NCBI GenBank assembly: GCA_951406725.2 | Contig: OX597817.1 | Span: 75,082,001 to 75,146,000, forward strand | Origin: Octopus vulgaris | Lineage: Eukaryota | Length of the DNA stretch: 64,000 nt | Direction of reading: 5' to 3' | Shown: piece by piece, positions 541-58,701 of the stretch | How the letters are laid out: each line of letters opens with the position of its first letter | How positions within the stretch are numbered: the first letter of the stretch is position 1 | Program-made: the position numbers and the translations under genes | The notes under the pieces: model-generated | The model's input: the letters and a program-made list of their open reading frames with translations, nothing else | Told to the model about the DNA's origin: nothing | The model's database searches: none

Positions 541-1276
541 TGTGTACAGTGCTCAGGTGCACTACAACTCATCTAAAGTGTATATATAATCAGGTGTAGT
601 TTCGGCGGATTTCGGAAAGCATGAGGGCCTTAAAGGATGCAGTGTCATGGCAGTCAACAACTGACGCAGGCAGTTTATTCCATGCTTCAGCAACTCTGAG
701 CATGAAAAAATGTTTCCGAAAGTCATAGGAGCTGTGTTGTTTTCTGACTTTGTAGGCATGTCCACGTGTGTTAGACACATGGAGATCAAAAAGGTGTTCA
801 GTGTTGTTGTTGGTGAGGTGGTTGATAACTTTGTGGGTGTTTACCAAGTCCATCACCAGACGCCGGAGCTTCAGTGAATCCATGCCCAGGGAAACAAGGC
901 ACTCAGAATATGGTAGGTGTCTGATGAAGGGTATGCGTTTGGTTGCACGTCTCTGGACAGATTCCAGGAGGTCAATGTTCTGAGCAAGATAGGGGTTCCA
1001 AACTGATGATGCGAATTCCAAGTGTGGTCGTACCATAGCTGTATACAGTTTTAAATAGATGGCTGGAGAGCGGCTAACAAAAGTCTTGCTGAGTGATGCC
1101 AAGACACCCTCGGCCTTCTTGACAATTTTAGGGATATACTTTGTCCAACGCAAATCACTGCTGACAGTGATGCCTAGGTCACGCTCGCAAGAGGATTTCT
1201 TGATATCAGTGTTGTGGAGGGAGTATGTGGACGCAGGGTTTTTTCTCCCAAAATGCATGGTGGTACACTTGTCCAC
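511..1276 (-). mobile_element. 5'-truncated CR1/L2-clade LINE (RT C-terminal region) with (ATT)n tail
   Basis: ORF 590..1276 has KCTTMHFG, ERDLGITVSSDLRW, LYTAMVRPHLEFASSVWNPY, LESVQRRATK, TRGH and WNKLP, typical of CR1/L2 ORF2 ends. (AAT)n at 511-540 is the 3' tail. Confidence 0.9.
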
Positions 1277-1500
1277 AGAATGTCACAGAAAAGAATTGCA
1301 AGACAAGCCAACCAGCAAGAGACCTAGGGGTGGATCAAGAACAAGATGGTTAGATAATATCCGTAGTCTCGGTTGTACTTGGGAATCCTGCCAGAATATC
1401 TAATGATAGTTGCTTCTGATAGGGCCTTGTGGAAGTGGTGCCTAAAACTCTACACCCCCATGACCCTCCCAGGAAGGGTGGGGGAAGAAGATGGATGGAT
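1277..1500 (+). mobile_element. RTE-clade LINE 3' end, right part
   Basis: KPTSKRPRGGSRTRWLDNI and ASDRALW are the RTE C-terminal RPRGRP..RW.D motif; ends in a GATGGATGGAT tail. Confidence 0.75.
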
Positions 1501-4120: not shown

Positions 4121-4126
<6 letters not shown>

Positions 4127-4605
4127 GATTATATATTGAATTTTGAGATACTAGAAGGCACCAACTCAACTCAGTATCAGAGCGAGCTAGAATCCGCAAC
4201 CAGTATCACCAAATTCAAAGTGTGAATGAAAGGATTGTGTCACCAGCCCCTTCCCACCCGCGTGTAGCCAAAACAAGATGCTATGGTCATCCACTGAGAT
4301 AAAATATGGTTATCCGTAATAATGAAGGGTGAAATTAATTAATTTGGAATAATTATCAATTACACCAAGTAGTCTTCGGCATGTAAAAGCCTCATTCAAG
4401 GAAAATTTAAGTAATACTAAGCAATAAAGGGTTTAGCAACGAATTGCCTTACCACAGACCGAATTTAGAAATAGCAGTCAAAGAGTTATAGCTATTTCTT
4501 CTACTAAAAAGGGAGATCTCAGTAAAAAACACAGCAATTGGAAGGCAGACACAAACAGGTAAGAGAGAATGAATTGACTGCAATCTATCATACAATTTTA
4601 AGTTA

Positions 4606-4705
4606 TCTACGGACGCACGTTTCGAAATCAAGTTTTTAGGAAAGCATAAGAATTAAATATTAAATAATTCTACGTTACCCAAACTTCTTTTCTCTTCAGC
4701 GTAGA
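4606..4705 (-). ncRNA. Type I hammerhead ribozyme motif (array A, copy 1)
   Basis: Reverse complement of the motif at 5516-5615. Confidence 0.8.
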
Positions 4706-5200
4706 ATACTATAATCATAAATGATTATATATTGAATTTTGAGATACTAGAAGGCACCAACTCAACTCAGTATCAGAGCGAGCTAGAATCCGCAACCAGT
4801 ATCACCAAATTCAAAGTGTGAATGAAAGAATTGTGTCACCAGCCCCTTCTCACCCGCGTGTAGCCAAAACAAGATGCTATGGTCATCCACTGAGATAAAA
4901 TATGGTTATCCGTAATAATGAAGGGTGAAATTAATTAATTTGGAATAATTATCAATTACACCAAGTAGTCTTCGGCATGTAAAAGCCTCATTCGAGGAAA
5001 ATTTAAGTAATACTAAGCAATAAAGGGTTTAGCAACGAATTGCCTTACCACAGACCGAATTTAGAAATAGCAGTCAAAGAGTTATAGCTATTTCTTCTAC
5101 TAAAAAGGAGATCTCAGTAAAAAACACAGCAATTGGAAGGCAGACACAAACAGGTAAGAGAGAATGAATTGACGGCAATCTATCATACAATTTTAAGTTA

Positions 5201-5300
5201 TCTACGGACGCACGTTTCGAAATCAAGTTTTTAGGAAAGCATAAGAATTAAATATTAAATAATTCTACGTTACCCAAACTTCTTTTCTCTTCAGCGTAGA
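5201..5300 (-). ncRNA. Type I hammerhead ribozyme motif (array A, copy 2)
   Basis: Reverse complement of the motif at 5516-5615. Confidence 0.8.
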
Positions 5301-5515
5301 ATACTATAATCATAAATGATTATATATTGAATTTTGAGATACTAGAAGGCACCAACTCAACTCAGTATCAGAGCGAGCTAGAATCCGCAACCAGTATCAC
5401 CAAATTCAAAGTGTGAATGAATTGGTTGCGGATTCTAGCTCGCTCTGATACTGAGTTGAGTTGGTGCCTTCTAGTATCTCAAAATTCAATATATAATCAT
5501 TTATGATTATAGTAT

Positions 5516-5615
5516 TCTACGCTGAAGAGAAAAGAAGTTTGGGTAACGTAGAATTATTTAATATTTAATTCTTATGCTTTCCTAAAAACTTGATTTCGAA
5601 ACGTGCGTCCGTAGA
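5516..5615 (+). ncRNA. Type I hammerhead ribozyme motif (array A, copy 3)
   Basis: Stem I TCTACG(5516-21)/CGTAGA(5610-15); core CTGAAGA 5522-28; 69-nt stem II closed by GAAA/TTTC with AAGTTT/AAACTT and AGAATTA/TAATTCT; GAAA 5598-5601; mini stem III CG-TG-CG; GUC cleavage triplet ending at 5609. Confidence 0.82.
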
Positions 5616-6111
5616 TAACTTAAAATTGTATGATAGATTGCCGTCAATTCATTCTCTCTTACCTGTTTGTGTCTGCCTTCCAATTGCTGTGTTTTTTACT
5701 GAGATCTCCCTTTTTAGTAGAAGAAATAGCTATAACTCTTTGACTGCTATTTCTAAATTCGGTCTGTGGTAAGGCAATTCGTTGCTAAACCCTTTATTGC
5801 TTAGTATTACTTAAATTTTCCTCGAATGAGGCTTTTACATGCCGAAGACTACTTGGTGTAATTGATAATTATTCCAAATTAATTAATTTCACCCTTCATT
5901 ATTACGGATAACCATATTTTATCTCAGTGGATGACCATAGCATCTTGTTTTGGCTACACGCGGGTGGGAAGGGGCTGGTGACACAATCCTTTCATTCACA
6001 CTTTGAATTTGGTGATACTGGTTGCGGATTCTAGCTCGCTCTGATACTGAGTTGAGTTGGTGCCTTCTAGTATCTCAAAATTCAATATATAATCATTTAT
6101 GATTATAGTAT

Positions 6112-6211
6112 TCTACGCTGAAGAGAAAAGAAGTTTGGGTAACGTAGAATTATTTAATATTTAATTCTTATGCTTTCCTAAAAACTTGATTTCGAAACGT
6201 GCGTCCGTAGA
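6112..6211 (+). ncRNA. Type I hammerhead ribozyme motif (array A, copy 4)
   Basis: Same sequence as 5516-5615, 596 bp downstream. Confidence 0.82.
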
Positions 6212-6395
6212 TAACTTAAAATTGTATGATAGATTGCCGTCAATTCATTCTCTCTTACCTGTTTGTGTCTGCCTTCCAATTGCTGTGTTTTTTACTGAGA
6301 TCTCCCTTTTTAGTAGAAGAAATAGCTATAACTCTTTGACTGCTATTTCTAAATTCGGTCTGTGGTAAGGCAATTCGTTGCTAAACCCTTTATTG

Positions 6396-6444
<49 letters not shown>

Positions 6445-6450
<6 letters not shown>

Positions 6451-18748: not shown

Positions 18749-18754
<6 letters not shown>
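17499..18754 (-). mobile_element. Decayed Tc1/mariner-superfamily transposon (possibly maT-like)
   Basis: RPPNWPDCSLLDYYMWNAVE (WPPNSPD.NPLDY motif), WFFSVEKNF, YIKCLEEVVLPW; degenerate TIRs at both ends. Confidence 0.85.
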
Positions 18755-18810
<56 letters not shown>

Positions 18811-19218
18811 AAAACAGGTTGCTTGACCGCAACCTGTTTGCCTGTCCCTTTTCTTATATACAATATATATACTGAACTTTACAGAAGTTCCTGCCGGTAA
18901 TCGGCTATATTTACATACCGAATTCTACCAGTAAATAATTGGGGTTTTTTTAAAAGCCTTTATAGAAATTATTTACTCTTATTATTATATTACTATTTGG
19001 ATTTTTCACTCCATTATGACAACCCAATAGTTCCCAATCTTATGGAACTATTTTTGTAGTGCGCATGGCAAAATTTTGGAGGGAAGATTTACGAATTCAA
19101 ACGTCTATGTAGGTTTAGCTTTTGCTCACTTTCTTCAAATATTTTGATGTCGCATGGTCAGAAGGTTTGAGGTACGTAGCATTTGATAAATCTATGATAA
19201 ATCTTTTTCAATGGAAAG

Positions 19219-19331
19219 CTGTGCTGAAGAAGGATGTGAAATATATATGCAATGTATATAAAATATATATCAAAAATATATATGAAATATATATTCAATA
19301 TGTTTATAATCCAGAAACATGATGTTCACAG
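19219..19331 (+). ncRNA. Type I hammerhead ribozyme motif (array B, copy 1)
   Basis: Stem I CTGTG(19219-23)/CACAG(19327-31); CTGAAGA 19224-30; 83-nt stem II a-GGAT...ATCC-a; GAAA 19314-17; stem III CA-TGA-TG; GUU triplet ending at 19326. Confidence 0.75.
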
Positions 19332-19861
19332 ATAACCGCCAGACTTCGTTTTCGTTATCTATTCCTTCTGTTTTGCATATGTGAATTACAGAGTTTGGCG
19401 TGCCCGGAGTCCAACTTTGATAGAAATAAGCATTCTTGACTGCTATTTCTATTTTTTCGGTATGCGGTCAAGCAACCTGTTTGCCTGTCCCTTTTCTTAT
19501 ATACAATATATATACTGAACTTTACAGAAGTTCCTGCCGGTAATCGGCTATATTTACATACCGAATTCTACCAGTAAATAATTGGGGTTTTTTTAAAAGC
19601 CTTTATAGAAATTATTTACTCTTATTACTATATTACTATTTGGATTTTTCACTCCATTATGACAACCCAATAGTTCCCAATCTTATGGAACTATTTTTGT
19701 AGTGCGCATGGCAAAATTTTGGAGGGAAGATTTACGAATTCAAACGTCTATGTAGGTTTAGCTTTTGCTCACTTTCTTCAAATATTTTGATGTCGCATGG
19801 TCAGAAGGTTTGAGGTACGTAGCATTTGATAAATCTATGATAAATCTTTTTCAATGGAAAG

Positions 19862-19974
19862 CTGTGCTGAAGAAGGATGTGAAATATATATGCAATGTAT
19901 ATGAAATATATATCAAAAATATATATGAAATATATATTCAATATGTTTATAATCCAGAAACATGATGTTCACAG
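19862..19974 (+). ncRNA. Type I hammerhead ribozyme motif (array B, copy 2)
   Basis: Same motif, +643 bp. Confidence 0.75.
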
Positions 19975-20504
19975 ATAACCGCCAGACTTCGTTTTCGTTA
20001 TCTATTCCTTCTGTTTTGCATATGTGAATTACAGAGTTTGGCGTGCCCGGAGTCCAACTTTGATAGAAATAAGCATTCTTGACTGCTATTTCTATTTTTT
20101 CGGTATGCGGTCAAGCAACCTGTTTGCCTGTCCCTTTTCTTATATACAATATATATACTGAACTTTACAGAAGTTCCTGCCGGTAATCGGCTATATTTAC
20201 ATACCGAATTCTACCAGTAAATAATTGGGGTTTTTTTAAAAGCCTTTATAGAAATTATTTACTCTTATTACTATATTACTATTTGGATTTTTCACTCCAT
20301 TATGACAACCCAATAGTTCCCAATCTTATGGAACTATTTTTGTAGTGCGCATGGCAAAATTTTGGAGGGAAGATTTACGAATTCAAACGTCTATGTAGGT
20401 TTAGCTTTTGCTCACTTTCTTCAAATATTTTGATGTCGCATGGTCAGAAGGTTTGAGGTACGTAGCATTTGATAAATCTATGATAAATCTTTTTCAATGG
20501 AAAG

Positions 20505-20617
20505 CTGTGCTGAAGAAGGATGTGAAATATATATGCAATGTATATGAAATATATATCAAAAATATATATGAAATATATATTCAATATGTTTATAATCCAG
20601 AAACATGATGTTCACAG
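20505..20617 (+). ncRNA. Type I hammerhead ribozyme motif (array B, copy 3)
   Basis: Same motif, +1286 bp. Confidence 0.75.
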
Positions 20618-20906
20618 ATAACCGCCAGACTTCGTTTTCGTTATCTATTCCTTCTGTTTTGCATATGTGAATTACAGAGTTTGGCGTGCCCGGAGTCCAA
20701 CTTTGATAGAAATAAGCATTCTTGACTGCTATTTCTATTTTTTCGGTATGCGGTCAAGCAACCTGTTTGCCTGTCCCTTTTCTTATATACAATATATATA
20801 CTGAACTTTACAGAAGTTCCTGCCGGTAATCGGCTATATTTACATACCGAATTCTACCAGTAAATAATTGGGGTTTTTTTAAAAGCCTTTATAGAAATTA
20901 TTTACT

Positions 20907-20959
<53 letters not shown>

Positions 20960-20976
20960 ATATATATCTGTGTATG

Positions 20977-47054: not shown

Positions 47055-50000
47055 TACTATCTCCTTACCATGACTTCATGTGATAGTTTTAAACGAATGT
47101 CAGACATAGAAGCGGCATTCTTAGTTTCCAGTTTTCCATGGAAAACGTTTTTGGTATGGAGAATATTATGTTGGTAACAAATGAGGTTTGGCGATAGGAA
47201 GTGCATCCGGCTATAGAAAATCTGCCTCTATAAATTCCGTCTGACCCATGCAAGTGTGTATAAGTGGACGTTAAAACGATGATGATGAAAGTTTATGTTG
47301 CTAATATCTAACAACTAAATATTGATGAATGTCTCGTCGTGATTACCTATACATTTGATATCATTATATCGAAATCTGTACAGTTGAGTTAGCTAGATTT
47401 ACGACTGCACACGTTTATTACGAGGTATGAAAACTTACGATCCATAGACGAATCGATGTCTCAACTACCTCCACGGCGAATATAAGTGATTGAAAAACAA
47501 ATATTCGTCAATACGTTTTTAACGTCATTTCCCGTTAAAATGACAACTGTAAAAGTGATTTTCTAATTTGAAAAAGCATTTTGACGACAAGCTATTCTCT
47601 CGTATTTTCATTTACCTCATTCTCTCAACACGGTAACTCGAACAATTTTTTAAATATCTCCAATTTGATGGATTCCTAACTTTTGTTTTATCAGTTTGTT
47701 ATTAAAAAAAAAAATTAAAATATAGTTTGCATTCTCATTCATTACTAAGTAAACGTCACGTAATCGCTCATTGATCTAATACTAATAACCTCTGTATTAC
47801 AATTTCCCCCTTTAGCTTTCTTGCCTAGTCCTAGTATAATCAATTCCTAATTTTTAATTTGTAATTACACATGATATTTATTATAATTTCATTTAGTCTG
47901 CATTGTATTTTCAAATTCGACGCAATAATGGTGCAAGGGAGACAATTGTTACTTTCCTCTGTCGATGCTGATAGTTCTGCAAGTAAAAAAAATACACATA
48001 ATATTTATTACGTAACACAAGTAATAAATGTACTTTCCTCAACCATTTTTCCATGCTCAGTTACGATTGCTACTTAAAATGAGCTGTGATGATATTATAT
48101 GGATTAGTTATGAAATGAAACAAAAACAAAAAACAAGTGCTACTGAATAAAAATAAAATTAGTCTATAAAAAGTTTTTTGTTTTCAAATAAACACCCCGC
48201 CCTCCCGTCATTTAAAGAATGAAGTAACGACACTTCAGTGCTTTTTAAAGCAGTCGACGATTTTTTTTTTTTTAAACAAAGTTATAATTGCAAATAAAGC
48301 ATCCGAAATAGAGGAGAAAGTGCTTCATTTTTCGTTTTGAAACGGGGAAAGGAAAAAAAAGTAAATGAATAAATAAATAACCGTTACGTAGATTAATAAT
48401 AAAGTGTGTTAAATATTTCCCTTCAAAAGGAAAAAAACCTTGTGGTTCGCGATCATATAGTAATTTCGGGGAAAATCGAAGGCAATTTTGTTTTCTAATT
48501 AAATTTCTGTGTAAACTTCTATGGATTTTGTTTTTCATAAAATTAATTTTAAATTTAATCTTGAATATGAAAAAAAAAATCGTATTTTTATATATACATA
48601 TACACACACACACACACATTTTACAACAAAACCAATTGCCTAATTCTATAAATGAAATTAATAATAATTAGTAAATTACACAACTCCGATCAGCAATAAT
48701 TGTTCTAATCGATCTCAATTATTTCCCTTTGTATAATTTATCTCGGCTTCGTTGTCAAAAAGCTAATTAATCTATTGAATATTTGAAATAATTAGGTAAA
48801 TTTTTAAAATAATTTATTCTACTTAAACGATACATTTTTTAACGCATTATTTGATCTAAAATGTACCTTTTAACCAAATAGAGTAAACACTGTGTGGTTG
48901 TTGTGAAGGGCGCCGTGATGTGACTGTGGGTGTCATATGGTAGTGAAGTGGGTAAAATTCCCAACGTTTCGACTCCGCGACCCGGTTTCGATTGGCAGTT
49001 TAAACAACTTCATGTACATCGTTAATGCCCTTGGGAAAGGTATGGATATTATTACAACGTATTTTCTCTTCTCGCCCTATAACCTTCATGCTTTATGCCA
49101 GTGTATGAATTATTATTAGAACCTTGCAATTAGAACGATGCAGCCATGCAATAGGACAGACTGATTTATGCTGCTGCCCATCTATCTAATTTGATGCTTC
49201 GGGTTTTTAGTTCAAATCTGATACAAGTCAACAGTATTTTTTTTTTTCATTTCTCGAAGTCGATCCCTGTAGAGAATTTGTTTAAAGCTGTCTACTTCCT
49301 TCTACCTTTTGAAAAATCTTTTTTTTATCACATTTCATATCTCATTGCTTTCCGTGTTTGCAGAGTTAGATAGAACTGTACCAGTAATATACTGCGATAG
49401 TTTCAATCGCCTATAATTTATTTATCCAAAAGTAGTCTACTGCTTCAAGAAATTAATCCTTGATTTATTAACAAAAATTTTGATTGATGTTTCAAAAGGT
49501 AAGGTGGTCATCCTCCAGCTTGGACTGAATTCTAGGATATGTTATTCTTTTCCTTTTTTTTTTAGACAATAGAAATATGCGAGATATATTTGGCTGTTAT
49601 TTCTAGTAGGTCAAGTGACCACATAGAACGTCTCATCGACTTGAATGGCTAGATTCCACTATTATGATTAAAAACACACACACACACACATTCCATGTTG
49701 GAAGGAAGCAAGCAGCAAATTTTCTTCTATTAACATTTCGTTTTCTATCTCTTTCTTTAATGATAATTAAAAATGGCTTTAATGAACACGCCAAATACTA
49801 ATAATATATAATAATCACTGCTGACCACTTTAGACATCAAAATCGATCATGGTTTTAGCTGTATTCTTTCTTTCTTTTACCCACGCACGGCACGCACTAA
49901 ATAATTTTGCTTCTAGAATATCGGAGAATCGCTACTTAAAAAAAAAGTTAAGTTAAAAACCTTCTCCAATTTACAAATTACAACCGAACATATTTTCTTT

Positions 50001-53780: not shown

Positions 53781-54751
53781 GGCGAAATCACGTGGTACTT
53801 GCGAAACCTATTTTTATTTATTTATTTGTTTCTTTGATTCCGCTCTTTATGTTGTTTTTTTTTTTTTAAATATATAATTTATATATGTATTTTTGTTTCT
53901 TTAATATTCCGCTAAGCCTTTTATTTCTAAAAGCTTTTCAATTCAATTGTAAATTTTTACGAAGAGAAAAGATGAAAAAAAAAATGTGAAAGGAAAAAAA
54001 TAAACCCACCCTAATCCCTTCCCTTCACCCCCACAAATGTCAGCCTATCAAGATCTTTTGTTACGTATGTAGTAAGCATTATCTCTTTAAAAAAAAGCTG
54101 GTAGTTTTCCTGGTTTTAATTCGTTCTTTATTTTTGTGTAATGTGTGTGTGTGTTAAAAGCTTTTTCACTAGTCGTTTCTCTTCTTAGTTCATTTACGCT
54201 ATTATTATGTTAAAATTGTGAAATTCTACGTTATCATATATAAGTAGTATATTAATCTCCTCGTGTGTGCCTGTCATATATATCTATCTCTAGTGTGTGT
54301 GTGTATGCACACATTTGTGTTAAGTACCATGGTGAACGTGTGTGTTAATTATTTATCCGTACGTATGTATATATGTCTTTATTTTTTATTCGTTTCAGAT
54401 TCGAGTATGATCCCTTTCCGCCTTATTTTCATTCAGAATGGCTAATCTGGCCTCACGATTTTGCAAAATGACACGAATCACGTGCTTAATTTTACTTGAA
54501 TGATACAATAATAATGAAAATGCTGTAGGATTACCAATACAAAAAAAGTGTTTTGCCTTTTTTTTTTTTCAAAAAAAAAAAAAGGACCTTATTGTGCAGG
54601 AATACATGAATCTACATTTAATTTTTTCAATTCTTGACTCTAAGTGAGTCTTGAAAAACCCAGTCGTGCATTCTTCAGTTGTATAACTCCACTTTATGTG
54701 GTCATATAACGGACTTTTATGTGCAGCCCTTTGCCGCTAAGGGTATGGTGC

Positions 54752-56049
54752 ATGGCCGCTATGGCGCCAGCGCTCACGGAAGCGGCCACACAAGCACACA
54801 TTAAGCTGCCTCTTTCGCCACCCTCTTCCACAGATTGCAGCCTGCTCAACGGTCGGGATAAAAAACCAACAATTGGGGCGAAAGAAGAGTTCGGCAGTTC
54901 CGTGGCCAGATCACCCGTGGAGAAAGGGTTCGTGAAACCCGCCCTGTCTGGTCTAACGTATCTGCAGAACGTCAACGGAGGTTTGGCAAAGCCAGTAGTC
55001 GGCAACACGTCTGTTGCCGCGGCTGGTGGTGGTAGGTTAGTTCACCTGAGAGTTATTCGAAACCTGTCCAAGGAACCTTACCATCGGAGCGAGGTTACTG
55101 CCGCCAGAAAGGAAGGAGTTAACAATTCCACTAATACCAGGAATCAAATGAATCGACAGAGTTCCTTTTCACCGCGAGGATCTTTGGCTATGAATAATAA
55201 TATTAACAGTAAAAACAGTCTTACCATTACCACTACTACTACCACCACCACCACTACAACTACTACTACTAATAATAATAATATATCTAGCGTTTGTTTC
55301 AGTGAATATCCTCAGCAGCGCCTTAAGAATTCTCTCTCCATTTTGGCGTCTAAATTACAACGATCTCATGAAGGTTCGTCGAAAACGTCATCATTAATAG
55401 TAAACAACATGAATACAAACGCCATTGATAAACCTTGTAATGAGAGCAGCATTGTTAGTGGATCCGGAAGGAGTATTGAAGGTGGCCTTGATCTGCAGAC
55501 TGTCCAACAGCAAGTGGATAAGTTTCAATGCAGTTTAGAGAAGAAAGCGAACACTTTACTGAAACGATTACGTCGAATCCAAGGCAGGCAGCTGGAACAA
55601 CATATCAGGCACCAGTTAGCGGGTTTTGTGAACAAACAGCACAAAAACCTGCAGAGTATGGCTAAATCTATCAAATCGCCCGGCCCCAGCAATGTAGCCG
55701 TCGCCGATCTGAAGACAGAGTTGCTGCAGAGCGAAGACGTACGGAATTTATCCACTGCCGCCCTGGTCAACCTGGTCAGGAAACTGCAATCATCTCAGCC
55801 GATTTCGATCGGTCATCAGAGGCTGATACAGAACGTCTCGACTAAGATAGACTCCAACAGCGTGCTGAAACTGGACAAGGCGACATGCGAAGAGTCGGAG
55901 CGTGTCGCATGTCAATTGAACACTGCTCTCAGGCATATGGAATCATCTCTGGACTCTGATGCAACGGAGAGTAGTTCTGGTGGTGAAAGCTCTGATGAAT
56001 GCGAGTTTGGTGAAGTCGACACAGAAAAGAAAATCCAAGACATGCCTCT
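54752..56049 (+). CDS. KANSL1: KAT8 regulatory NSL complex subunit 1 (NSL1), first coding exon (partial CDS)
   Basis: N-terminus MAAMAPALTEAA, coiled coil LEKKANTLLKRLRRIQGRQLEQHIRHQLAGF and SLDSDATESSSGGES are KANSL1 hallmarks. Exon ends ATGCCTCT|GTAAGT (phase 2). In-frame upstream ATG at 54719; candidate acceptor TTTCAG at 54398. No further exon recognised in the window. Confidence 0.93.
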
Positions 56050-58701
56050 GTAAGTAATATTTTTTCTTCAGTATTTTTATTTTTGTAGAAAATAAATTTA
56101 TGTACATAATATAACAATATGAATGTCATCACTACTACGAACACGTCCACCTGCTGCAGTGAGTTGCAGCCGCATCATTAGTAACAAAAACAAAAGCCAT
56201 TTACCACCTTCCACATTGCGACATATTTGAAATATATTTCTTTGGCACAACATATATCTGTACAAACAAACACACACACACATGTATACTTACATCTATC
56301 TGTATATGATACATCCATCCCTCTATATGTATGTATGTGTATATAAATATACATACACATTCTCTCTCTCTCTCTCTCTCTAATTATATATATATATATA
56401 TATGTATGTAGTTTTACAGTTGTTGTTGGGGGGAAAGAAAAGCATCCTCTTTAAGCAGCTGAAGCCTGTAATGTTGTAAATAACTGATGTTTGATATTAA
56501 TGCATGTTGATTGAAATATTGCAGCAATTGTGATGATTCTTAGTAAGGAATGGTTGAGGATATTCTGTAAAATCAATGTGAAGAGTTTGTAGTAACGATC
56601 CTTTGCACTCGTCGTGTACATTTATCCACGTGAACTCCTACCTCTCGACTGAGCTTATCTCTGTTTTCTTTTTATATTTTCTCCTCCTCTTTTCGCTCTG
56701 ATCGATGTGTGTCATGAAAAGTCTCACGGATGGGCAGTTCTCTTCCATCACAAGGAGAAATAACTTGTCTATATTTCTAGTGTGGTGAAAAATGAAAGTG
56801 TGTCTATATATAATACACACTCGTTTGTACAGACATATATTGCAGACACTTCTGTAAACACATACGCGTTCAATGCACACACACACACACACACACACGC
56901 GCGCGTATCGCACGCTGTTTAGGGTAGTAAAAAAAGGAAAACGATTGTGAACGTGTTAGCTAAAATAAAAATGTACTGTTTCTTGGAATCATTTTAATTC
57001 TCCTTTATTACTGTTATTGCTATAATTACTTTTAAACCGTCTTTCTGATGTAGTATTTTTAAACTTGTCGCTAATTTGCGTGTTTGTAAGATTTTCTGTC
57101 ATTTCTTGCTTTTTTTAATCACACATGATCTGACCTAGTTAGTATTAGAGACGATTAACGCTGGGGAACAGTTATCTTGTCGGTATTTTATTTTATTTAA
57201 CTGTTGGTCTTTACCATTAATTATCGTAGACTAATTTTAGAACAGTCACACAACCTTGTCCGCTATTTATTTTTGAAATCCTGATCCAAAACATTGTTTA
57301 TTTTGCCTTTATTTGAAAGCTTGCACGAACTATTGTTACCTGCCTGCCTACCAAGGTGGTGTTTTGATCTACGCAAATCCTAATTTATTCTAATATCTGA
57401 TAACGTGTATCTATCACTCGACCCTTGATGTCTTTTTGTTATAGCCATAATCTGAAATGGTTCCTTTCAGAAATTTACCACTGGGGAACATGCGATATGA
57501 CGTCGTTTTCCCGCCATTAGGTTCTATTGAATTAAATTCATTGTTTTAAAGTGTCTCTTACTTCAGTTAATGATTTGCTTGCTAAGTGCTATTGTATAGA
57601 AATCCATAAATTTTTATTTTAGGGTCAGTAATTGTCTCAGTTGTTTCTCATTCTGTCAACTCTTTAATTGCTCACTATATTTTTCTCTCTATTATTATTG
57701 CATACTGTATGCTTTTCCCCATTATGCACTTTTATTCAAATAACAAAAACGTCTGGGCTGAATAAATACGGTTTTCAAATTCTGTTATGCGCGTGTTGTT
57801 GGTTTTATTTTCTTTTAGCAGGTCATTTGTTATACTGAATAGCATTTATGTTTTGCTTTTCTTCCTAGATCGTTTCGGTTTGTATTTAAAATTAAAATAT
57901 AAATAAATATTCACCTGTCCTGGTTGTCTCTTGTTCGAATTCTTCTACAGGTTAGTAAACAGTAAATAAATAAAAAAATGTAACGGGTATTTTAGATTAT
58001 TGAAACGTTACGTAACTGTTATTCTTAAATATCTTTCGTCATTTAATGGTTCTTGTCTTCAAGCCTATGTACCATTTGAAAGGCTTAGGGTTGTATATGT
58101 ACATATTTTTTCACATTAGGTAGAAATAGTTCTCAATAGTGATGTACATTTAAATATTAAGCTACTAAAAATCAACAGAACAGCGATATCTAGCTCCTGT
58201 TTAATTTCTTGTTAACATAAAACTACCTAAAATTTCTAAAAAAAAAGAAAAAAAAAGAGAAAAACTCCAAAACAAAAAGAAAATCTTATGGAAGTGAAGT
58301 ATAACATTTTAAAGGATGTTATAAATAATATTTCAGTTTATCCATTATCATCCCAAACCAGGAAGTTTGGCATATTTGAATGTTTGGACATCGAGCAGCT
58401 TTTTCGGCAATTGAGGCAAATATCTAAATTAATATATGCTTGATTATAGAAAAGTGGTTGTTCATTAAGGCGAAATGTAATGCTGTGTACTGAGAACTCT
58501 AGTTTTAGTTTCTTGAATCAATTGAAGCCGACTTCAAACATTTGAAATAGATGTGGAGGTAAACTTAGATTTAAATTTTGAAAAATGTTCATTTATGGTT
58601 TGGTTCTGAATCAATAACTGTTTTAAATGAAAGATTTGGTTGGTTCAGAATTTAACAAATTGGATCAATTTAAAATTGGATAGATAACATCTTTTTTCCT
58701 G

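Follow-up and report, generated by a model that had tools for sequence, protein, structure and literature searches.

What is the second conserved motif that follows the hammerhead ribozyme in two tandem arrays of the Octopus vulgaris genome, and what would account for its preservation? The arrays, A and B, lie within a single stretch of 64,000 nucleotides (nt), the whole of which is referred to here as the window (assembly GCA_951406725.2, contig OX597817.1, positions 75,082,001 to 75,146,000 of the forward strand). A first-pass annotation had described a hairpin with a possible pseudoknot common to both arrays, and both of its motif strings are found exactly, at 5722-5777 and 19422-19475, on the strand of the ribozymes and, as it had stated, at similar distances from them (112 nt past the predicted cut site in A, 96 nt in B). 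The motif makes up the 5' third of a predicted multi-helix RNA fold of ~190-230 nt, a real, structured and selected RNA element for which a function is likely. The reading we favour, with a probability of roughly 0.6, is that the fold is a docking or recognition scaffold that would position a borrowed Penelope-like reverse transcriptase (RT) and endonuclease at two start sites.

The fold was modelled on an alignment of 29 type 1 representatives, which we sorted into four groups (A, B, C and D), and eight copies of a shorter type 2 form. In unit A, where all features are on the forward strand, a closing helix, P0 (5716-5853; 5716-5720 with 5849-5853), is predicted to form a three-way junction with H1 and P2, and is the weakest helix, with 69.6% of cells paired. 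H1 is the hairpin originally annotated (5722-5754; 5722-5730 with 5746-5754), and combines a variable 5' arm with an invariant 3' arm. The invariant core, CTGCTATTTC (5744-5753), is retained in all 21 rows of a joint type 1 and type 2 alignment, and pairs wholly within H1 in type 1 but spans H1 into P2 in type 2. The long-range helix P2 (5758-5846; 5758-5767 with 5837-5846) joins the motif half TTCGGTATG to CATACCGAA, ~80-100 nt downstream, and encloses both the hairpin H2 (5768-5791) and the small hairpin H3 (5820-5831), which precedes the 3' strand of P2. The last hairpin is H4 (5855-5893). The equivalent fold in unit B (19420-19620, forward strand) comprises H1 (19420-19452), the core (19440-19449), P2 (19456-19464 with 19557-19565), H2 (19466-19490), extra hairpins (19498-19533), H3 (19536-19548) and H4 (19573-19620). 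RNAalifold recovers H1 and P2 unaided, the folding z-scores of the window copies are -2.57 (A) and -4.28 (B), and whole-monomer pair probabilities are 0.8-1.0 for H1, P2 and H4, reaching 1.0 for H1 of unit A, with 0.52 for P0 of the same unit.

The claim that this is a structured cis-element under selection is upheld by compensatory changes in P2, H2 and H4. Across a 34-pair structure that omits H2, 84.5% of cells are paired, and 27 cells have changed on both sides, compared with 10.7 +/- 3.7 after shuffling (0 of 500 shuffles). When its strands are anchored, P2 is paired in 283 of 288 cells across 36 of 37 sequences, a count that excludes the one locus without a partner (L139), and its compensatory changes run from G-C to A-U in group C and from U-A to C-G in type 2, with G-U intermediates for both. 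The upper stem of H2 is paired in 112 of 116 cells, with a both-sided change from C-G to U-A, and the lower stem in 79 of 87, with a change from U-A to C-G. Permuting the 3' strands of P2 and the H2 stems reaches the observed values in 2, 3 and 11 of 5,000 trials, which are counts rather than probabilities, as the sequences are related. P2 has 31 G-U combinations against four of A-C, an excess suggesting that the RNA is the hammerhead strand. The covarying helices sit partly or wholly outside the coordinates first annotated; the stem named there, H1, itself shows no both-sided changes, because its 3' arm is invariant.

The same fold is positioned where copies end. Copy ends against (TA)n cluster in two zones, which take in 174 of the 190 (80 and 61 of 153 in type 1; 19 and 14 of 37 in type 2). 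Between the hairpin base and the TA run there is a median of 12 nt at the short end, which follows H2 (n=91) and is realised in array A at 6397, and of 13 nt at the long end, which follows H4 (n=70). Between groups the base of H4 shifts from +114 to +158, and the long end tracks it, from +126 in type 2 to +166 in group B; the tail measures 94-130 nt. In 43 of 47 inverted insertions the two ends are of different kinds, one short and one long, a rule to which array B conforms, and TA-rich stretches elsewhere in unit B are rarely used as ends. The RT-recruitment role that had been proposed for the motif would fit these positions.

The motif is widespread. Exact patterns were searched across the 2.8-Gb genome, with 30 loci inspected per search, as well as hand-chosen stretches, out of all matches. 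Two non-overlapping type 1 patterns gave 5,133 and 7,842 matches, and the type 2 pattern 1,203, a total of at least 14,178 over three non-overlapping patterns, with none for any reversed control. Comparing unit A with unit B in 28 segments of 50 nt, the two that hold the motif have z-scores of 7.5 and 8.0 (0 of 100 shuffles), and a third, 5822-5871 against B 19546, which holds the downstream pairing partner, has a z-score of 3.7 (again 0 of 100). As only these three of the 28 beat all shuffles, the similarity is not uniform along the unit, in line with the first-pass annotation; its further statement that the units share no other obvious similarity was too strong, given the third segment and the small boxes that align along both units beyond the motif. 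A hammerhead is callable 97-140 nt upstream in 67 of 214 motif copies, and damaged or partial in 23 more. The other 124 appear to be 5'-truncated or inverted, 102 having a microsatellite or inverted copy upstream (by script) and 22 looking shortened (by eye). At one locus (L092:1260-1310), a motif copy is adjoined by a different, GC-richer hammerhead-bearing repeat with the core CTGACGA.

Unit A also occurs in contigs filed under other organism labels (20 runs, nine studies, six labels, none listed as RNA), as does unit B, whose long end, again followed by TA, is the same in two of the four runs examined. Unit A is covered by contigs from presumed RNA runs as well, with its strand and ends not visible, and these contain no intron-like joint within it. 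A metagenome scan produced 14 pattern matches, which are attributable to chance, since H2, the H1 arm and the P2 partner are missing from all of them.

The reasoning from ends to starts draws on the anole Poseidon element PAc, in which the RT starts internally at two stem-loop sites that define the tail (PMC11167929). By analogy, the two copy ends here, mapped as genomic ends, would be RT start sites, one per nicked strand. The resemblance to what is described of PAc extends to two internal start sites, which lie 3' of a type I hammerhead and define a tail that is optional, to AT-rich targets, to the cutting and extension of both strands, and to a predicted protein dimer (PMC11167929). PAc differs in being autonomous, with a canonical tail of 30-40 bp and starts in one AC-rich stem-loop inside its open reading frame (ORF) (PMC11167929), whereas the motif repeats are non-coding, with a 94-130-nt tail, a separate hairpin for each end, and a shared long-range helix and three-way junction. 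Under the favoured reading, array transcripts would adopt the predicted fold, and the enzyme would bind the junction and the invariant core, the candidate protein-contact stretch being CUGCUAUUUC with the junction. It would then nick both strands of a (TA)n target, and from each nicked 3' end complementary DNA (cDNA) would be primed on the AT-rich sequence that follows H2 or H4 by 12-13 nt, the outcome being a long, 94-130-nt form of the Penelope 'tail'.

Several observations weigh against this reading. Firstly, the statistical case has limits: six pairs show both-sided change, a number reached by 244 of 500 shuffles; the independent covariation events number about five to seven, counted by eye without a tree; and the invariance of the core is inflated, as loci were picked by motif pattern. 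Secondly, the pair probability of H2 is weak in the window copies, at 0.23-0.38 overall and 0.23-0.28 in the unit A copy. Thirdly, the core lies ~40-50 nt from the short end, and position by itself is no proof of binding. Fourthly, the left arm of array A terminates at neither usual site, an exception to the two-end rule. Fifthly, the 16-nt core recurs, with 861 exact matches, in an old repeat of ~200 bp that lies between GTT runs, in which a same-strand hammerhead and the H1 arm are each found in 0 of 20 copies and a P2-like partner in one of 20. The expected co-occurrence of motif and hammerhead thus holds for the whole fold, which travels with the ribozyme, but not always for the core. This old repeat is present in the window at 49589-49620 on the forward strand (other loci L207-L226), shares the hairpin-like stretch GGTCRAGCRACC with the motif elements, and ends, by eye, ~12 nt past a stem base; read on the other strand, its core closes a hairpin with a GAAA tetraloop.

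A last point on this side concerns the enzyme donor. The partner search sampled Hydra- and Neptune-type loci, with Naiad, Poseidon and Nematis outside the sample, and among the loci sampled no autonomous element has the fold in its terminal repeat; the candidates rejected on this ground were the 717-aa Hydra element and older Hydra copies, as well as the large Hydra group and several families of Neptune type. Profile searches returned only separate short-repeat insertions, as judged from coordinates, at the 96, 30 and 16 ORF-bearing loci covered, and the reverse search detected no homology. In favour of the docking reading, the two-end rule also holds in autonomous Penelope-like elements of this genome, in 11 of 11 cases for the large Hydra-clade group and in four of four inverted insertions of the 717-aa Hydra element. 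Tails measure ~118 nt in the former and ~67 nt in the latter, with ~39 and 32 nt in two Neptune-type families that follow the rule too. The end signature CT(T/C)(A/T)ATT, chosen after viewing the data, occurs at 20 of 22 long ends of the large Hydra-clade group, compared with 7-17% of background segments, and at 60 of 100 short ends and 32 of 75 long ends of the motif repeats, as well as five of five Neptune long ends. On tail length and end signature, the large, active Hydra-clade group is the best candidate enzyme donor. The likeness to this clade as published includes (TA)n targeting, hammerheads, a 5' copy that is inverted and a tail confined to one end (PMC8557442). The terminal repeats of Hydra-clade elements sampled in this genome differ in lacking the fold, and have in common with the motif repeats the tail length (~118 nt, in the large group) and the brief signature at the ends. 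Active members here show the clade marks RWK/RWR, DKT and CxCX5C.

The large Hydra-clade group (L307-L322, L277-L306) has ORFs that reach 1,091 aa and contain long inserts rich in Asn. It also has 3' regions spanning 1.2-1.7 kb and its own structured tail of ~118 nt, and numbers 16,684 first-look candidates. Before its short end is an invariant CCATTCTTGTTGCT, with a faint likeness to the family B form of the core that is not significant by nhmmer. The young 717-aa element (L061-L064) forms tandem arrays with a period of ~2,590 bp, a variant hammerhead core, CCGAAGA, and ends at +37 and +104. A young 781-aa Neptune-type element (L233, L238, L257, L258) has a terminal repeat that combines a TTGATAA hammerhead core with repeated ATTGG and TGACGTC boxes, a TATA-like box and a likely splice donor, and an upstream sequence that resembles a further reading frame.

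A bolder version of the docking reading is possible, which we rate as less likely than not. The fold might be a shared passport for hijacking Penelope-like enzymes, in which the three-way junction and invariant 10-nt core would dock a dimeric RT-endonuclease, and two hairpin-defined priming sites ~100-130 nt apart on a single RNA would each serve one target strand. The core would then be old, persisting in the hammerhead-less 200-bp repeat and faintly in Hydra-clade ends, and would work without terminal homology to the helper.

Alternatively, the fold may be kept for RNA housekeeping, that is, for the stability of linear and circular monomers, a free hammerhead or export, with the enzyme starting wherever AT-rich sequence is accessible 3' of a hairpin. 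H1, P2 and H4 are predicted to form in linear and circular monomers alike, a high degree of pairing is predicted for retrozyme circles (PMC7229834), and autonomous elements with unrelated structures obey the same two-end rule. We nevertheless consider this unlikely, as it leaves unexplained both the sequence-invariant core and the constant 12-13-nt offset at both hairpins. The core could instead act as DNA, either as an internal promoter element or as a site for the GIY-YIG endonuclease, with the helices a separate RNA feature. Its fixity whether paired in H1 alone or into P2, its recurrence in the old 200-bp repeat, the presence of promoters in Penelope pseudo-long terminal repeats (PMC6765202) and the endonuclease recognition of the tail cited in PMC11167929 are all compatible with such a role. 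Yet the G-U bias and compensatory changes amount to selection on one RNA strand directly beside the core, and by eye no promoter or splice-site consensus is retained across groups, so this explanation seems improbable. A splice-site reading (GTATGT/GTAAGG donor; branch point and AG) was dropped by eye, as type 2 and array A of the window (GTCTGT) lack the donor, and most families the AG.

We give very little credence to the proposal that H1 and the core are mostly a by-product of shared ancestry and of repeated fold-back duplications in reverse transcription, which would leave a hairpin without selection. It is true that H1 lacks both-sided change, that some copies have fresh inverted arm duplications (L097, L085, L105), and that 13 of the 47 inversions hold two motif copies within 70 nt. 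However, A and B retain the core and P2 while being otherwise unalignable, and of the changes in the 5' arm of H1 that affect one side only, 12 preserve a G-U pair; nor can such a process account for P2, H2 or H4.

Penelope-like RTs are the closest relatives of telomerase RT, and the first-pass annotation had raised the idea of a telomerase-like pseudoknot (loop TTGAC with a downstream GTCAA) that would dock the enzyme. Family B does allow six consecutive pairs, but the pairing has no both-sided changes, only 77% of its cells are paired, its central pair is broken in 15 of 29 sequences, and it performs at or below shuffles; combined with six H1 pairs, the structure again scores no better than shuffles. 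A ViennaRNA value of 0 for the pseudoknot was disregarded, as the program cannot form pseudoknots. Moreover, GTCAA belongs to the covarying H2, and in several families the loop bases lengthen H1 instead, leaving this idea with scarcely any likelihood. Equally remote is a second self-cleaving or ligating RNA, which a multi-way junction with invariant bases might evoke, but which has no Rfam family match, no recognisable ribozyme core, and invariant bases that are mainly paired. The Rfam scans, which took in ribozymes, snRNAs and SECIS elements, gave no match in the window at gathering score, and the best hits (E 0.22 and 2.2) fell well short of the cut-offs; sensitivity was limited, as the hammerheads were likewise missed. 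At the level of sequence, the analysis found no evidence for either a second ribozyme or a promoter.

The elements that host the fold are hammerhead-bearing, ORF-less, (TA)n-inserted tandem repeats, that is, non-autonomous Penelope-like elements or retrozymes. The window contains seven motif copies, four in array A (4444-4499 and 5040-5095 on the reverse strand, 5722-5777 and 6318-6373 on the forward) and three in array B (19422-19475, 20065-20118 and 20708-20761). Self-BLAST and Tandem Repeats Finder delimit the inverted left arm of array A at 4121-5421 (reverse strand), with ~2.2 units and ending in (TA)n; its end at 4121, equivalent to unit position 5504, is at the tip of an AT-rich hairpin immediately 5' of the hammerhead. 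The right arm (5423-6397, forward) has a 596-bp unit without an ORF, and its short end abuts (TA)n at 6397-6448. Array B has a tiny inverted left arm (18809-18831, reverse), the short end of which abuts (TA)n at 18753-18808, and a right arm (18829-20921, forward) of ~3.25 copies of a 643-bp unit, also without an ORF, with a long end abutting (TA)n at 20909-20967. Neither array contains an ORF of at least 120 aa.

Both units carry a type I hammerhead on the forward strand. That of unit A (5517-5615) has the core CTGAAGA at 5522-5528, GAAA at 5598-5601 and a palindromic stem III, with a predicted cut after 5610 (GUC); that of unit B (19219-19331) has its core at 19224-19230 and GAAA at 19314-19317, with a predicted cut after 19326 (GUU). 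The predicted cleavage triplets of the 67 callable hammerheads are GUU (27), GUA (21), AUC (14), GUC (4) and GUG (1), and the cores vary (CCGATGA, TTGATGA, TCGATGA). This predominance of non-GUC triplets, with the varying cores, suggests weak or protein-assisted cleavage. Elsewhere in the window, a 447-aa stop-free frame (54710-56053, forward strand) reads like a genuine coding exon of a host gene, and a 230-aa frame (590-1282, reverse strand) resembles what we take to be the C-terminal part of the RT of a long interspersed element (LINE).

With these host elements, a known class, the non-LTR retrozymes, which are non-autonomous Penelope-like elements, gains new members. Metazoan retrozymes, proposed to be non-autonomous derivatives of Penelope-like elements, are likewise tandem, non-coding units of low GC with one type I hammerhead each (PMC7229834; 10.64898/2026.07.22.740005). 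Membership follows from the ORF-less tandem units and the hammerhead in each, as read from the sequence. Relative to published retrozymes, those found across this genome have units of 480-645 bp and long stem II loops, and the available portions of PMC7229834 and 10.64898/2026.07.22.740005 describe neither a second conserved fold nor fixed ends. As in Penelope-type insertions, the 5' copy is inverted and only one end has a tail, but no terminal sequence was found in common with an autonomous partner among the Hydra- and Neptune-type loci sampled. Two-ended tails are already known. No account of a covarying multi-helix fold shared at start sites turned up in Rfam or in the literature search, with Repbase, Dfam and supplements outside its scope, where such families may be held.

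Borrowing through structured RNA has a familiar parallel: short interspersed elements (SINEs) borrow LINE proteins through 3' stem-loops. In both systems a non-autonomous element has a structured RNA signal beside the RT start. However, a SINE shares the 3' end of its LINE and has one start at the end of the RNA, whereas the motif repeats would have two starts, both internal, and none of the autonomous elements sampled carries the fold.

The RNA choice and start site of Penelope-like RTs have been studied in vitro for one element only (PMC11167929), and the mobilisation of animal retrozymes is described as unresolved (10.64898/2026.07.22.740005). If it were a folding scaffold only, the element would still provide a useful annotation of a repeat superfamily with more than 14,000 copies. 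As a defined candidate signal of ~200 nt, it comes with natural compensatory variants, two mapped sites at which reverse transcription would start, and active candidate enzymes in the same genome, and it is this combination that makes retrozyme mobilisation directly testable.
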